In this document: positions 1-10,323 of the stretch, piece after piece
Layout: the number at the start of each line of letters is the position of its first letter
Position numbering within the stretch: position 1 is the stretch's first letter
From: an uncultured delta proteobacterium
GTDB lineage: Bacteria > Desulfobacterota > Desulfomonilia > Desulfomonilales > Desulfomonilaceae
DNA length: 64,000 bases
Assembly: GCA_963789265.1 (NCBI GenBank)
Contig: CAWBKB010000001.1
Span: 704,001-768,000, forward strand
Reading direction: 5' to 3'
The notes under the pieces: generated by a model
Told to the model about the DNA's origin: nothing
Database searches by the model: none
Seen by the model: only the letters and a program-made list of their open reading frames with translations
Program-made: the position numbers and the translations under genes

Positions 1-363
1 CTGATCATGGCTCATCTTTGCGGCCCCGTCATGTTTTACACTATGGGAATAGTCCTGGGACTGGGTTGGGGCGTAGCCATGCCGGTGTTGAGCGGCCTGA
101 TATTCGACGTCTCTGTGCCGCGATTCCGGGCTCTGAATACCAATTTTGCCATGGAAATGTTTCAATGCGGTTTTTTTGTGGGGCCGCTGGTAGGAGCGTC
201 TATACTGGTCCATTCGGGCTACGGAACATTATTCTACGCTTGCGGCGGTCTCTTGTTTGCCGGTTTGGCCACAGCTCCAGTGCTCTGCAGAAAAAGCGGG
301 ATAACCCCGGAAACCCCAAATGAGGAAGAAATATGGAAACAGAAAAAAGCAAAGAACCGGTAG
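1..363 (+). CDS. MFS transporter, C-terminal part (truncated by window edge)
   Basis: Hydrophobic helices; 'D...PRFRA..T', 'G..VGPLVG' pattern typical of MFS TM10-12. Confidence 0.75.
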   Translation: MIMAHLCGPVMFYTMGIVLGLGWGVAMPVLSGLIFDVSVPRFRALNTNFAMEMFQCGFFVGPLVGASILVHSGYGTLFYACGGLLFAGLATAPVLCRKSGITPETPNEEEIWKQKKAKNR

Positions 364-5187: not shown

Positions 5188-5670
5188 TCACCGCAGAGAG
5201 CGCAGAGACCGCGGAGAATTCTGGTTTCGTCGGGCGTCTATCTGATGGAGCCGACTTGTTACGGCACAGGCGCTAAAACAGCATTCATCCGTTGGTCAGC
5301 AGGCTATTGTCCCAGAGGGACATTTTGATAGTAGACCGGTGCTTTCAGCGCCGGGAACGAGCAAAAAAGAGAACCCGTGCGTCCCAGAGGGACGCCTGAA
5401 TGTAATCGTAGAAATCAGCCTTTCAAGCGTCCCTACGGGACGCAGAAGCGGTCATTATTGGTCGCTTTCCCGGCAATGAATTGCGGGGCTGCTCTCACGG
5501 AGGCCCTTTGGGGCTCATAAGGTTGCAAGAGATGCTTCGTTTTAACGCCCACGGCTTATTCTGGTCCGTGATAGTAAAGCATTTTCGGCTCGACTATTCT
5601 CGATTGTGGCTCACATGATGCTTAATAAACTATCTTCTTACTCTGCGTTCTCGGCGCACTCTGCGGTGAA
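5188..5670. repeat. Inverted pair of CACCGCAGAG..CGCAGAG-type repeats enclosing a MITE
   Basis: 5188 ttcaccgcagagagcgcagagaccgcggag versus the reverse complement of 5641-5670 (ttcaccgcagagtgcgccgagaacgcagag). Confidence 0.7.
5265..5553. mobile_element. Degenerate MITE of the CATAGGCGTTAAAA family
   Basis: Ends cacaggcgctaaaac/gttttaacgcccacg; internal cgtccc..gggacg and cccggcaatgaattgc.ggg hairpins shared with 41725-41987. Confidence 0.65.
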
Positions 5671-5895
5671 TCTTGATTGTGCACCGAGGATGGTTTCAAA
5701 CTTGCCGTGCTCTGCTTCCCAAATTTCCCTACGGTCTTTTCTCAGCCCTTGGCTGATATAGAACTTGATGAGAGCTTGATATCCTCCCATTCCTTTTAGC
5801 GGTGCAATTCTTTTCAGATCTTCCAGCACGTCCTCCGGAACTCTGATGGAAATGTGCTTCATTGGCCGATCTTTATGCAGAACAATCTTCTTCAT
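5638..5895 (-). CDS. CopG/BrnA-like RHH antitoxin; C-terminus runs into a repeat
   Basis: 'ISIRVPEDVLEDLKRIAPLKGMGGYQALIKFYISQGLRKD' matches the CopG-antitoxin pattern. Confidence 0.7.
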   Translation of the reverse strand: MKKIVLHKDRPMKHISIRVPEDVLEDLKRIAPLKGMGGYQALIKFYISQGLRKDRREIWEAEHGKFETILGAQSRFTAECAENAE

Positions 5896-6021
5896 AACGT
5901 TCTCTCTCCTCGGGGTAACAGGGTCGAATCCGCTGGTAGCTAATATTGGAGTTCCATCAAGGACAAAGCTCCAGTGCTGTCGAATTAACGCTAATCCCGG
6001 CGGTCACGCCACCGTCGTGAC

Positions 6022-6143
6022 CGTCACCCCGGACTTGATCCGGGGCCCAGTAGTCCCGCATTTTACGGGATTGAAATTCACCGAGTCGCGGGACTGGATT
6101 CCGGCTCTTGCCCCGGATCGATCCGGGGCTGGCCGGAATGACG
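6022..6143. repeat. Palindromic REP-like element (GTCACCCCGG...CTGGATTCCGGC...GCCGGAATGAC)
   Basis: Internal hairpins; the same motif forms the core of the MITEs at 49616 and 53338. Confidence 0.7.
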
Positions 6144-6227
6144 GCAACCGCACGCGGATTACCACAACAGCAAAGAGCATAAGATGTGCAGATCTCGCAG
6201 GACGCCTGAGAACACCATCGCTCGCTG

Positions 6228-6491
6228 CTACGCCCGCCTCAAGGAGCATTCCATGCAGTTGCACTGACGGGAGAAGTCCGCACGACGCCTAGAATGTTCT
6301 GCGATAGAATCAATCTGTTCGTCTGTGAGATCCTCATAAACTCGGGCTGCCAACGCGAGAATCTCGTCAGGTTTCTCTAACGGCTCCACGACCAGACGCA
6401 CCTTTTGTCCCTCTGCAAGCTTCAGATCGAACGGCGCAACAAGGCGAAATCCTCCGTGTTCATAGACGGCTTCGACAGTTTCAGTTGCCAT
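6228..6491 (-). CDS. AF2212/DUF104-like antitoxin
   Basis: 'TVEAVYEHGGFRLV...L.EGQKVRLVV' signature; RBS gagagg. Confidence 0.8.
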   Translation of the reverse strand: MATETVEAVYEHGGFRLVAPFDLKLAEGQKVRLVVEPLEKPDEILALAARVYEDLTDEQIDSIAEHSRRRADFSRQCNCMECSLRRA

Positions 6492-6527
6492 GCGAATGCT
6501 CCTCTCTGCCCTGGCCCACTCTGATCT

Positions 6528-7235
6528 CTACTGAGGCGGCTGCCAGAAGGGTCCGGTCTTCTCGATTTCCTCAAGGATGGTCAGGACCTCATGAAAGTAT
6601 TCTCTGCTGCGGGCAAGCCAGTCGGCATCAAGACGCCTGCGAAAGAATTTCCCCGAGAAAAGCCGGAATAAGTCCTTGAGAGGGATAATTCCTTCAACAT
6701 TAGCCGAATCAAATTGAGACCAATTTCTCACATGCTCTTCCGACCGGAAGAGATTCATAGTGCTTCAGGTGTACGCCCAGTCTTCCATCCATTTCCGCAA
6801 CGGGACTGCAACATAACCGATTATTCCTTCCGGCTCAGTTTTTACAATGGTCCCATCAGACACTTCCACAACTACAGGACCGCCGCAATCTAAACACACA
6901 CTATTAATTTGGACCGTCTTCCCCGGGCACAGCCAGCAAACTGCCAGCGACTCGAATCTTCATTGACCAAACCACTTTTGCCTACCGTCAATGGTGATCC
7001 TATACTGAGTCGGGACATTGCTGAAGGGAGCAAAGGAAGCGATCAGACTGGTATTGGGGTAGAGCCAACAACCAGGGATCTTCAGGTCGATGAGTTCATG
7101 GAGTTTTTGTCGGCCCTCGTCCGGTGACACTCCCAAATCTTTTGCGAGGTCAGTGTAATGGGGTGCGTGACCGGTGTCCATCAACCCCTTCAAGATGATT
7201 CGGAACGTCTTGCCAAGTTGTGCTGGATCACTCAT
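6528..7235 (-). CDS. MerB (alkylmercury lyase)-like selenoprotein with two in-frame UGA (Sec) codons, 235 aa
   Basis: Continuous frame ...PFSNVPTQYRI...KWFGQ-U-RFESLAVCWLCPGKTVQINSVCLDCGGPVVVEV...WAYT-U-STMNLFRSEEHVRNW; TGA at 6960-6962 and 6765-6767, each followed by a hairpin. Confidence 0.85.
6735..6752 (-). promoter_or_regulatory. Putative bacterial SECIS element for the second UGA
   Basis: CUCUUCC-GGUC-GGAAGAG, a perfect 7-bp stem with a G-starting tetraloop, 12 nt after UGA 6765-6767. Confidence 0.8.
6932..6948 (-). promoter_or_regulatory. Putative bacterial SECIS element for the first UGA
   Basis: GCUGGCA-GUU-UGCUGGC, a 7-bp stem (two G-U pairs) with a G-starting loop, 11 nt after UGA 6960-6962. 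Confidence 0.7.
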
Positions 7236-7306
7236 GGGGCACCTCTCGATTCACTTGATTGGCCGATGCCTTTTCTGGGCATCCTCTTATCTTAGAGGGC
7301 GCAACC

Positions 7307-7450
7307 TCAAACCAGCAAGTATTTCCTCATTATCTCTTCGTTTTCCCTCAATTCATCCATGCTGCCCTGAAACCGGATGACGCCATTGTCAATGAGGTAG
7401 CCGCGATCACTCAGGTACAGTGCAACTTTCTGATTCTATTCGGCCACTAC
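7307..7450 (-). pseudogene. C-terminal remnant of a LivF-type ABC ATPase
   Basis: Minus frame reads VVAE*NQKVALYLSDRGYLIDNGVIRFQGSMDELRENEEIMRKYLLV; the 'EQN' glutamine codon is TAG and no Walker motifs lie upstream. Confidence 0.65.
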
Positions 7451-7750
7451 ATCCTACGCGACCATGCCCACGGCCAATTTGAACGCGTCGAGAACATCGT
7501 TTGTGTACGTACTTGCCGGGCGGCTATAAGTGTCAACAATACTGATTTTTATCTCCCCGGCCGCGTAGGCCCGGCCGCCGGCGATCGGCAGCCCTACGAT
7601 GGCCAAAGTTCAGACGATCAAGCTCGCGGTCTATTTCGTGACATGACCTCCATGTCTTGGCGGATTAACTCGCGGAGACTATAACAACAATGTGGGGATT
7701 GCAGAAGCGGTGGATCGTGCCCATTATGATATGGTGAGAAAAAACAGAAT

Positions 7751-8110
7751 ATGCGTGCAAAAAAAGATAAGCCGGTCAAAGCTAAGGAATCCGATTCCAA
7801 CATAAGTTTCTATCCCGCGTGGTGCAAACGGTGCGGAAATTGCGTTGCATTCTGCCCGAAGAAAGCCCTGGAGACAGACGAATGGGGTTATCCCCGCTTG
7901 GCCAGACCTGATAGCTGCATATCCTGTCATCTCTGTGAAAAGCTGTGCCCGGATTTTGCCATCACCGTGGGGGAAAAGGCTCCTTCGAGCGTTGCCAAGC
8001 GTGCATCCTCGGTCCCGTCTCCCGGAACTCACGGTTCGCCGGTAAGCGCTCATCACAGTCCCGAGCGCCTCGCACCGGCTCCGCATGAAGAGGAGGAGGC
8101 CGATGAATAA
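7751..8110 (+). CDS. korD: 2-oxoacid:ferredoxin oxidoreductase delta subunit (2x[4Fe-4S])
   Basis: CKRCGNCVAFCP and CISCHLCEKLCPDFAI; first gene of the kor cluster. Confidence 0.85.
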   Translation: MRAKKDKPVKAKESDSNISFYPAWCKRCGNCVAFCPKKALETDEWGYPRLARPDSCISCHLCEKLCPDFAITVGEKAPSSVAKRASSVPSPGTHGSPVSAHHSPERLAPAPHEEEEADE

Positions 8111-9239
8111 GAACAGGGGCCGCCTCCTCCAGGGAAATGAGGCCATAGCTCGGGGAGCGCTGGCCGCGGGGTGCAACTTCTACGCGGGTTACCCCATAAC
8201 GCCGTCAAGTGAAATCATGGAGCTTATGGGCCTCGAACTACCTGTACGCGGCGATGTTTTCATCCAAATGGAAGATGAGATCGCGTCGATGGGCGCATGC
8301 ATCGGAGCGAGTTTGGCCGGTCGCAAAACGATGACGGCCACGAGTGGTCCGGGATTCTCGTTGATGCAGGAAAACCTCGGTTATGCATGCATGGCGGAGA
8401 TCCCGGTGGTAGTTGTGAACGTGATGCGCTTGGGGCCTTCAACCGGTATGCCCACTAATGCGGCTCAGGGCGATCTGCAACAGGCGCGTTGGGGCACACA
8501 TGGAGACCACCCGGCTATAGTGCTCTGTCCGGCTACGGTATCCGAATGCTTCGATGTTACGGTAACCGCATTCAATCACGCGGAGCGATTCCGCACACCG
8601 GTGATACTACTCGCAGACGAAATGGTGGCGCACACTCGAGAAAAGGTTGTCCTGCCTGAAGCCGACGACATCGAAGTCATCAACCGTCGCCGTCCCACCG
8701 TGCCGCCGGAGTGGTATGTGCCGTACAAAACCGACGGGAGTCTCATTCCGCGGCTGGCGGCCCTGGGGGAGGGGTATCGCTACCATGTAACCGGCCTGAC
8801 CCACGACGAGCGGGGATTCCCAACCAGAAGACAAGACGAAGCCGCCTCATTCTACAAGCGGCTTTTCGCAAAGATCAGCAGTCAATTTGCATATCTGGAA
8901 ATGGTAAAACAGTTTGAGCTTGACGATGCCGAACTGCTGATAATTGCCTACGGATGCGTGGCAAGAGCGGCCCGTGCCGCGGTACGTCTGGGGCGGGAAA
9001 GAGGCATCAAACTCGGATTACTTCAGCTTCTCTCACTGTGGCCTTTTCCTCGTCGCGCGGTCTCCGAGGCTCTTACTGCGAAAAAAGCAGCGGTGGTGGC
9101 CGAGCTGAACTTGGGCCAAATCCGGCGGGAAGTGCTCCGGGTCAACGACGGTCGCACCCGTGTGCTTGGCCTCAACAAGGTTGACGGGACCATGATCACC
9201 CCTGAGGAAATTCTCAATCGCTTGCGAGAGATAAAATGA
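8103..9239 (+). CDS. korA: 2-oxoacid:ferredoxin oxidoreductase alpha subunit
   Basis: GNEAIA, YPITPSSE, QMEDEIAS, TATSGPGFSLMQE. Confidence 0.93.
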   Translation: MNKNRGRLLQGNEAIARGALAAGCNFYAGYPITPSSEIMELMGLELPVRGDVFIQMEDEIASMGACIGASLAGRKTMTATSGPGFSLMQENLGYACMAEIPVVVVNVMRLGPSTGMPTNAAQGDLQQARWGTHGDHPAIVLCPATVSECFDVTVTAFNHAERFRTPVILLADEMVAHTREKVVLPEADDIEVINRRRPTVPPEWYVPYKTDGSLIPRLAALGEGYRYHVTGLTHDERGFPTRRQDEAASFYKRLFAKISSQFAYLEMVKQFELDDAELLIIAYGCVARAARAAVRLGRERGIKLGLLQLLSLWPFPRRAVSEALTAKKAAVVAELNLGQIRREVLRVNDGRTRVLGLNKVDGTMITPEEILNRLREIK

Positions 9240-9269
9240 AAATCGTTGAGCGGGCAGCAGGATTCTAGG

Positions 9270-9459
9270 TCCCGCGAGACGCGGGATACGCTGAGAACGC
9301 AGAGAGGAGGAAACCGCCTGAAGATCGCGCCGGAAGCCAGAAAGATACCCAGTCAGGACAGCATGTCTCCACCGGCCTAGACTCTAACGTGCTGTGCCGA
9401 GCTGAGAGAATTGCAAAGAAAAGAGACTTCTCTGCGCTCTCCGTGATCTCCGCGGTGAA
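9270..9459. repeat. CGCAGAG-family inverted-repeat insertion between korA and korB
   Basis: gctgagaacgcagagag (9291) ... ctctgcgctctccgtgatctccgcggtgaa (9430-9459); same family as 5188/5641. Confidence 0.6.
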
Positions 9460-9471
9460 CGATCATCTAAA

Positions 9472-10323
9472 ATGAATGTCCAAGTAAGCCGAAGCGTGGT
9501 CTACGACTGGCTGCGCCATGACAAGAAATTTCCCCATGTCTGGTGTCCCGGATGCGGCCTTGGGATACTGCTGGGTTCGCTCGTTCGAGCTTTCGTGCAA
9601 AGCGGCCTGACCAAAGATGAAGTTGCTTTGGTGTCCGGCATCGGCTGCGCGGGGAGATTGCCGGTTTACGTGGATGTGGGCAGCGTCCACACGACTCACG
9701 GTCGGGCGCTCACGTTCGCTACCGGCATCAAGCTTGCCAAGCCGGAACTCACGGTCGTAACCGTAATGGGAGACGGCGATGCACTGGCCATTGGCGGCAA
9801 TCATCTTATTCACGCGGCGCGGCGCAACGTAGACATTGTCGCTATAGTGGTCAATAATCAGACTTACGGCATGACCGGCGGACAATATAGTCCTACGACT
9901 CCATTGGGCTCGAAAGCGTCCACCGCCTGGTTCGGGACCATTGAACCCTCTTTTGATATTGGTGCCCTGTGCGTTACCGCAGGGGCCGTATTCGTGGGCC
10001 GTACCACGGTTTATCATGTGGACCGCATGGATAGGCTTCTAGCGCAGGCATTAAGCAAACGTGGATTCAGCGTTGTGGAGGTCTTATCCCCCTGCTACAC
10101 GAATTTCGGCAGGCAGAATCGCCTGGGCTCGCACGTGGAGATGATGAAGCAATACAAGGAGCGCGGGGTTCCGGTTCAACGATGGGAAAAGATGAGTGAA
10201 TCGGAACGTGCCGGGCGCTTTCCGATAGGTGTCCTCGCGGACAGGGAATTGCCCACATTTCTCGATTCCTATCGCCGCGCGTGTGAGATTGCGGCAAAAT
10301 GGCGCGCGGAGGGGAAAATATGA
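9472..10323 (+). CDS. korB: 2-oxoacid:ferredoxin oxidoreductase beta subunit (TPP-binding)
   Basis: WCPGCG, SGIGC, HTTHGRA, GDGD...NNQTYGMTGGQ. Confidence 0.93.
   Translation: MNVQVSRSVVYDWLRHDKKFPHVWCPGCGLGILLGSLVRAFVQSGLTKDEVALVSGIGCAGRLPVYVDVGSVHTTHGRALTFATGIKLAKPELTVVTVMGDGDALAIGGNHLIHAARRNVDIVAIVVNNQTYGMTGGQYSPTTPLGSKASTAWFGTIEPSFDIGALCVTAGAVFVGRTTVYHVDRMDRLLAQALSKRGFSVVEVLSPCYTNFGRQNRLGSHVEMMKQYKERGVPVQRWEKMSESERAGRFPIGVLADRELPTFLDSYRRACEIAAKWRAEGKI

Follow-up and report, generated by a model that had tools for sequence, protein, structure and literature searches.

The gene and its two in-frame UGA codons

The DNA considered here is a stretch of 64,000 nucleotides (nt; "the window" denotes this whole stretch) from an uncultured delta proteobacterium of the Desulfomonilaceae (phylum Desulfobacterota; GenBank assembly GCA_963789265.1, contig CAWBKB010000001.1, positions 704,001 to 768,000). 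Its minus strand harbors a genuine MerB-like gene that, as judged from sequence comparison, almost certainly encodes a selenoprotein with two selenocysteine (Sec, U) residues. Counted from the first letter of the window, 7235-6531 (-) forms a single open frame of 235 codons with TGA at codons 92 and 157 and no other stop (Table 1). The list of open reading frames (ORFs) obtained with translation table 11 splits the gene into three same-frame pieces (6960-7235, comprising 91 amino acids (aa), 6765-6899, and 6528-6758), and translation of TGA as U gives an uninterrupted RFESLAVCWLC...WAYT between the two TGAs. A preliminary description of this DNA had already placed the ORFs 6960-7235 and 6528-6758 in one frame and had found the codons between TGA 92 and TGA 157 free of stops, both of which the ORF list and the translation bear out; its overall reading of the locus as a 235-aa di-selenocysteine organometallic lyase is likewise supported by the codons, the Sec machinery, the sequencing, and the fold.

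Fragmentation by gene callers would also be seen if no selenoprotein were encoded at all, i. e., if the locus were a pseudogene, a set of three small ORFs, a gene with UGA read as Trp, or the product of an assembly error, and some database proteins do carry W at both columns. Against this speaks that the remaining ORFs of the window stop normally under table 11, and further evidence bearing on the matter comes from the relatives of the gene, its hairpins, and independent sequencing.

Table 1. Features of the di-Sec gene and of a second MerB-like gene of the same genome (window positions unless another contig or residues are given).
Feature	Position	Strand	Basis
Entire gene (235 codons, then TAG at 6528-6530) containing UGA in frame at two sites (putative Sec)	6528..7235	-	frame, Pfam, fold
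Shine-Dalgarno-like GAGAGGU, 5 nt before ATG 7235-7233, presumed function	7241..7247	-	seen in sequence
UGA codon 92, predicted to be read as Sec, on MerB Cys96 column	6960..6962	-	
GAG codon 95 (Glu), on column of MerB proton donor Asp99	6951..6953	-	alignment
Hairpin 1, resembling a selenocysteine insertion sequence (SECIS), GCUGGCA-GUU-UGCUGGC, 7-bp stem (two G-U pairs), 11 nt after UGA-92	6932..6948	-	
Invariant Cys114-Leu-Asp-Cys117, beta-hairpin turn	6885..6896	-	alignment, model
UGA codon 157, predicted to be read as Sec, on MerB Cys159 column	6765..6767	-	
SECIS-like hairpin 2, CUCUUCC-GGUC-GGAAGAG, 7-bp stem, loop GGUC, 12 nt after UGA-157	6735..6752	-	
Domain layout: winged-helix-like; MerB catalytic; C-terminal helical extension	residues ~1-66; 71-192; 193-235		
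Second MerB-like gene with two in-frame TGA	G000:C1:1734019-1734774 = L175:1520-2275	+	PF03243, translation

Conservation of both UGA codons among relatives

Relatives were gathered from several sources. Among species-representative genomes, 599 pattern matches were obtained, at least 577 of which encode a full-length relative, and the best 80 loci (L014-L093), mostly metagenome-assembled genomes (MAGs) labelled as delta proteobacteria, Desulfobacterales, Syntrophales, or Desulfomonilia, yielded 81 gene copies. From metagenomes, 600 stretches with at least 551 confirmed full-length relatives were retrieved with ~155-aa "Cys92" proteins as queries, and again the best 80 loci (L095-L174) were analyzed. 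The codons at both columns in homologues, whose inspection the preliminary description had proposed, turned out to be TGA, not TGG, in 80 of 82 copies of the first set (81 plus the window gene; the exceptions are L083 with TGC and TGA, and L082, which is unalignable because of an early stop) and in 78 of 80 of the second (with one TGT and TGA, L146, and one truncated copy). Over both sets, TGA thus occupies both columns in 158/162 copies at protein identities of about 55-85 %, and neither TAA nor TAG is ever found in their place. In addition, of 401 genomes drawn evenly from the same phylum, 39 contain strong matches (at least 175 bits), which number 44 in total. Exactly two TGA are present in 41 of these matches; the remaining three show three TGA, two TGA plus one TAG, and one TGA plus one TAA, respectively.

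Some copies are truly broken, as would be expected of pseudogenes: L082 has decayed with its early stop at codon 22, and so have G325:C14:4059-4754 and G315:C7:9717-10409, one of which carries one TGA and one TAA and the other an extra TAG. Duplications also occur, with several genomes of the phylum sample holding two copies on separate contigs and a Desulfobacteraceae MAG contig (L059:3121-4702) holding two nearby di-Sec gene copies on the same strand, both with TGA at both columns.

A protein search returned 70 relatives, of which ~40 appear "full-length" with W at both columns, all encoded on metagenome contigs of ~1-2 kb, ~20 have C at column 92 and break off directly past residue 156, and 7 end after residue 91. 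As inferred from the DNA of other relatives, the two W residues are best explained by gene calls made with TGA as Trp (code 4). The Cys92 forms, in turn, are over-represented in this search because U/U genes are split into pieces that fall below its length window. Selenoproteins are commonly recognized by a UGA that is kept among orthologues while certain homologues have Cys in its place; such Cys is found here with TGC in L083, TGT in L146, and the protein record P0031, the latter showing Cys at both columns and being known from the protein record alone.

Hairpins downstream of each UGA

A small stem-loop with a G-containing loop, the other common hallmark of bacterial selenoprotein genes, lies close 3' of each UGA. 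Both 7-bp hairpins with G-starting loops at +11 and +12 nt are present as previously described. The minimal SECIS of Escherichia coli fdhF also presents a GGUC-type apical loop ~11 nt from its UGA, and the Sec-type selD of the source genome itself carries a 7-bp hairpin with a small G-initial loop (CUCCAGG-GGA-CCUGGAG) 13 nt after the UGA. When the 158 U/U genes were pooled and counted as distinct sequences, six of the seven pairs of hairpin 1 proved to be kept in at least 124/125 sequences and the innermost pair in 100/125, while the six inner pairs of hairpin 2 are kept in at least 90/92. At its outer pair, hairpin 2 has C-G in 59 sequences and U-A in 14, both sides having changed in a compensatory manner, and 15 show no pairing there. 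Little variation is seen in the loops either, with GUC or GUU in 120/125 (hairpin 1) and GGUC in 89/93 distinct sequences (hairpin 2).

RNA-level conservation of the hairpins can be separated from protein-level conservation by a synonymous-site test, for which the entropy of codon choice at well-conserved residues was compared, codon by codon, with the family-wide usage of the respective amino acid in 81 genes. Only eight codons in the entire gene fall below 35 % of the background entropy, and all of them lie inside the two hairpins: S96 (TCG in 75/76), L97 (CTG in 77/81), and C100 (TGC in 61/61) in hairpin 1, and L162, F163 (TTC in 81/81), R164 (CGG in 80/81), S165 (TCG in 81/81), and E166 (GAA in 79/81) in hairpin 2. 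At other invariant residues (G22, A24, P25, C114, C117, G118, and R201) synonymous codons vary freely. Just two Cys92 relatives were verified at the DNA level, and both of them retain hairpin 1; they are counted neither for nor against the Sec reading.

Selenocysteine machinery and sequencing support

The source assembly (6.06 Mb in 9 contigs, 95.6 % complete) contains the whole Sec machinery named in the preliminary description, i. e., selA (507 bits), selB (SelB wing domain with 72.7 bits within a 738-aa frame), selC in the form of tRNA-Sec (71.3 bits), and selD (359.6 bits; L011, G000:C7:193442-194362, -), which has one in-frame TGA of its own (SG-U-AAK). A sequencing error, the remaining possibility raised at the outset, was addressed with contigs of three public DNA runs from one study that may include the source sample: these keep both TGAs, with no difference at 6960-6962 or 6765-6767, and at the neighboring position 6959 a variant turns Arg of codon 93 into Gly, the residue typical of the family. 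No RNA run was listed for the stretch.

The locus as a non-selenoprotein thus would have to account for a TGA pair that is maintained down to ~55 % identity, for a frame that is otherwise open and conserved at the protein level with frozen synonymous sites confined to the hairpins, for the presence of the Sec machinery, and for the agreement of the public-run contigs. We regard it as hardly credible, and code-4 translation as Trp, pseudogene formation, and sequencing error were rejected on account of the conserved TGA pair, the hairpin-only synonymous freeze, and the agreeing contigs.

MerB fold and active-site register

For searches, the read-through protein was written with U shown as C (P0001). 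The Pfam family MerB (PF03243) matches it at residues 71-192, across both UGAs, with 76.2 bits (cut-off 27), and with phmmer the matches among the PDB sequences are limited to MerB and MerB2, apart from a single unrelated chain of marginal score. An AlphaFold2 model based on a 67-row alignment (A2) reached a mean predicted local distance difference test (pLDDT) score of 92.3 and a predicted template modeling (pTM) score of 0.87. In a Foldseek search of the PDB, MerB and MerB2 make up the entire top 11 (E 1.1e-9 to 2.7e-6, template modeling (TM) scores of 0.47-0.67), followed by winged-helix domains that cover the N-terminal ~66 residues only. Both the Pfam search and the structure prediction that the preliminary description had put forward as checks hence lead to MerB.

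In the printed phmmer alignments to MerB of plasmid R831b, U92 stands on Cys96, E95 on Asp99, C114 on Cys117, and U157 on Cys159, which confirms the register anticipated earlier for U92-x-x-E95 and U157 with respect to Cys96, Asp99, and Cys159. Since the TGA codons fall on the columns of MerB Cys96 and Cys159 and are kept in 158/162 copies, their positions are not due to chance. Glu95 is invariant in all 67 rows of A2, and four relatives from the protein search show Asp there. The Cys114-Leu-Asp-Cys117 turn lies between strands 107-113 and 120-126 of the model and pairs the equivalent of MerB Cys117 (Cys114) with a family-specific cysteine (Cys117). Possible roles of this pair are those of a zinc-knuckle relic, a product-transfer pair, or a resolving pair.

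A second MerB-like subfamily with two putative Sec

A search of the source genome with PF03243 brought up a further frame that contains two TGA codons (match at C1:1734349-1734750; Table 1), which translates as ...YAA-U-AVD... and ...DSF-U-KES... with ECAHC at the Cys117 column. Although its product is only 20 % identical to P0001, both U columns and the CxxC motif are in register. A hairpin UUCUUCU-GGUC-AGAAGAA begins at base 16 from the second UGA, the same offset as for hairpin 2 of the window gene; after the first UGA, no hairpin with a similar 7-bp stem appears around +11 to +15 nt in the RNAfold minimum-energy fold. The second gene stays below all NCBIfam cut-offs, and a phmmer search with P0001 (E<=1e-3) did not recover it.

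In the phylum sample, 26 of 27 matches to this subfamily (in 26 genomes) have two TGA, at 41-78 % identity (the source self-match giving 99 %). The second subfamily shares with the window gene the putative Sec residues at the Cys96 and Cys159 columns, the CxxC motif, and the GGUC hairpin after the second UGA, but differs by U-x-x-D, as in canonical MerB, and by a longer N-terminus. Because 26/27 of its members keep both TGAs, a di-Sec active site, as predicted from these sequences, is a recurring and maintained feature of MerB-like proteins in the phylum.

Relation to MerB and SaoL

With canonical MerB (EC 4.99.1.2; PDB 3F0P and 3F0O; MerB2 5C17) the window protein has the fold (Foldseek E 1e-9, TM about 0.57-0.67), the Pfam domain, and the register 96/99/117/159 in common. 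At ~20 % identity it departs from the canonical signature in that Sec, Glu, Cys, and Sec take the places of Cys96, Asp99, Cys117, and Cys159, and it adds an invariant Cys three residues past the Cys117 equivalent as well as a C-terminal helical segment of ~40 residues. Its scores against the canonical NCBIfam models are far below the cut-offs (32.8 vs 200 bits for NF033555 and 37.5 vs 193 bits for NF009710). A survey of mer genes screens MerB by Cys96/Asp99/Cys117/Cys159 and, in its available text, describes 99Ser and 117alt variants only (PMC8261052).

A Sec-containing relative of MerB, to which the preliminary description had pointed, does exist: according to the available text of a preprint (Haft & Gwadz, bioRxiv 10.1101/2022.07.06.499078), SaoL ("selenocysteine-assisted organometallic lyase", SAO; NF040728) has one Sec, in a CU dipeptide on MerB Cys159, a Cys at the Cys96 position, and a nine-gene SAO locus. 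As far as that text describes SaoL, the two are alike as PF03243 MerB-fold selenoproteins of anaerobes that are UGA-truncated in databases, with Sec at the Cys159 position, an acid at the Asp99 position, and a substrate that perhaps is non-mercurial. They differ in that SaoL combines one Sec (CU) with Cys96 and the SAO locus, whereas the window protein has two putative Sec, T-U (A/S/T-U among relatives), and Glu instead of Asp. Its score with the SaoL model is 44.9 bits against a cut-off of 140, which sets the family apart, and the 81 loci show no recurrent neighborhood of the SAO kind, the individual Sao models not having been searched in the genome.

In the available text of two selenoprotein reviews, MerB or alkylmercury lyase is represented by SaoL alone, as a one-Sec entry (PMC9312934, PMC13188914), and the latter, from 2026, states that the vast majority of 119 selenoprotein families carry one Sec. 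A full-text literature search, which covered articles without their supplements and outside subscription journals, found no paper on a two-Sec MerB relative, SaoL being the sole MerB-like selenoprotein that it brought up. The window family is distinct from both SaoL and canonical MerB and appears to be lacking from selenoprotein catalogues.

Genomic context and mercury

On one side, the gene is neighbored by a divergent cluster for a ferredoxin and a 2-oxoacid:ferredoxin oxidoreductase (7751-10320). On the other side and on the same strand, an AF2212-like antitoxin-like ORF (6228-6491; 29.5 bits, above cut-off) follows 37 nt past the lyase stop, and further downstream lies a CopG-antitoxin-like ORF (5638-5895 (-)), whose 24.3 bits fall short of the cut-off of 28. 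A partner toxin was not recognized. Just upstream of the lyase gene, a 31-codon frame (7310-7402 (-)) ends in …YLIDNGVIRFQGSMDELRENEEIMRKYLLV*. This frame matches nothing in Pfam but seems to resemble the C-terminus of a LivF-type ATP-binding cassette (ABC) ATPase; as stops precede it, it may be a gene remnant.

Across the 81 loci, the most frequent neighbor clusters (CCG/Fer4, flavin adenine dinucleotide (FAD)-binding oxidase, acyl-CoA dehydrogenase, sensor kinase, and radical S-adenosylmethionine (SAM) proteins) are found in 4-10 loci each. In 6-10 of the loci, a CCG/4Fe-4S protein and an FAD-binding oxidase (a GlcD/GlcF-like pair) are encoded ~1 kb downstream on the same strand, which may reflect lineage synteny rather than a functional link.

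No mer genes were found near the gene in the window, in line with the earlier remark that a mer operon is missing nearby, and genome-wide no MerA lies above cut-off (best 387.5 vs 454.45 bits). The caution that the substrate may not be an organomercurial is justified by the missing mer operon and MerA. The source genome does encode HgcA (468 bits, cut-off 275; G000:C4:258989-259975 (-), match without in-frame stop), by which the organism is a candidate mercury methylator on sequence grounds.

Proposed mechanism and alternative functions

In MerB, two chalcogenolates bind the metal of R-M+ and a carboxylate gives a proton to the carbon. Selenolates, which are fully ionized at neutral pH, are the tighter ligands for soft metals. 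On this background, we propose that the three ORF fragments represent one gene for a 235-residue cytosolic MerB-fold enzyme, in which SelB and tRNA-Sec would insert Sec at UGA-92 and UGA-157, each directed by its own hairpin, which lies within the reading frame 11-12 nt downstream. Sec92 and Sec157 would take the places of the metal-binding Cys96 and Cys159, and Glu95 that of the proton donor Asp99. The likeliest chemistry, in view of the established MerB mechanism, would be a MerB-type protonolysis of a carbon-metal(loid) bond, in which a soft metal is gripped between the two selenolates (the foremost candidate substrate being methylmercury or another organomercurial) and Glu95 protonates the leaving carbon. 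The bound metal could then be passed on, conceivably via Cys114-x-x-Cys117 or small thiols, and the gene would act as a stand-alone unit without MerA and without a mer or SAO operon. By analogy with MerB, a function as organometal(loid) lyase seems fairly probable, and an organomercurial as its substrate is possible, if somewhat doubtful.

A number of observations weigh against this proposal. At the RNA level, the hairpins overlap the strongly conserved peptides SLAVCW and LFRSEE, so that their conservation is partly protein-level, and an Rfam scan of 6000-8000 (E<=10) gave three chance-level matches, none of them a SECIS and the best (E 9.5) to an unrelated model. SelA is found in 371/401 genomes of the phylum sample and in 36/39 carriers, i. 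e., not above background, and one carrier, the 99 % complete G148, has no SelA match. The proton-donor site is occupied by Glu in place of Asp. No conserved neighborhood exists among 538 neighboring ORFs of the 81 loci, the commonest cluster being present in 10/81. As to mercury, a weak hint in its favor comes from cross-tabulation of the phylum sample, which places HgcA above cut-off in 19/39 carriers vs 100/362 non-carriers, and in 14/26 carriers of the second subfamily. This enrichment is only modest, however, and both relatedness and genome size act as confounders, related genomes not being independent. Finally, Hg(II) bound by two selenolates would form a highly stable complex. Product release from such a site is the weak point of the mechanism, and in the absence of MerA catalytic turnover on mercurials is doubtful.

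Another conceivable function is that of a real di-Sec protein without turnover, which would serve as a high-affinity trap, chaperone, or sensor for soft metals, or would scavenge methylmercury or Hg(II) in a single turnover. Sec92 and Sec157 would bind the metal, perhaps with Cys114 and Cys117 as further ligands in a candidate Sec2Cys2 site of zinc-finger ancestry. Consistent with this are the very strong Hg-Se bonds, the solitary gene with no above-cut-off MerA to take the product, and the invariant CxxC in the hairpin turn, which recurs in the divergent paralogue; moreover, the MerB fold is traced, in the available text of PMC4999995, to a fusion of two treble-clef zinc fingers, in which the original metal site has turned into the active site. 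The invariance of Glu95 in all rows of A2, however, is expected of catalysis and not of mere binding, and two Sec residues would be costly for a stoichiometric sponge, so that we consider a non-catalytic role unlikely.

More improbable still is a redox function newly acquired by the MerB scaffold, with a Sec92/Sec157 diselenide or selenenylsulfides with the CxxC motif in a reductase or isomerase. The invariant CxxC beside two Sec would fit, as would the fact that, as far as the available text of PMC13188914 goes, redox enzymes with U/C-x-x-C/U motifs account for most of the selenoproteins catalogued. On the other hand, all three MerB catalytic positions are in register, the acid included, Foldseek gives MerB and winged-helix matches only and no thioredoxin-like fold, and no conserved redox partner adjoins the gene (Fe-S and FAD genes in 6-10/81 loci). 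The organometal(loid) lyase hence remains our preferred reading. Its extension, by which stand-alone di-Sec MerB-like lyases of at least two subfamilies would be the mer-independent methylmercury degraders of anaerobic sulfate reducers and syntrophs, is rather speculative and on balance unlikely.

Significance

An enzyme with Sec as both catalytic metal ligands would represent unusual chemistry, and two-Sec selenoproteins are rare. The family is sizeable, with at least 577 relatives in species-representative genomes, at least 551 in metagenomes, and carriers among 39/401 genomes of the phylum sample; split by gene callers, it is essentially invisible in protein databases and surveys of mer genes, and for both the window family and the paralogous subfamily, models that allow for two recoded UGAs are needed in annotation pipelines. 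To our knowledge, it is an open question which enzymes degrade methylmercury without a mer operon in anoxic sediments. The family is a concrete candidate for such a degrader in lineages that make methylmercury, about half of the sampled carriers being HgcA-bearing. If the methylmercury reading is true, two selenolates cleaving the Hg-C bond would tie the selenium and mercury cycles together at the level of enzymes.

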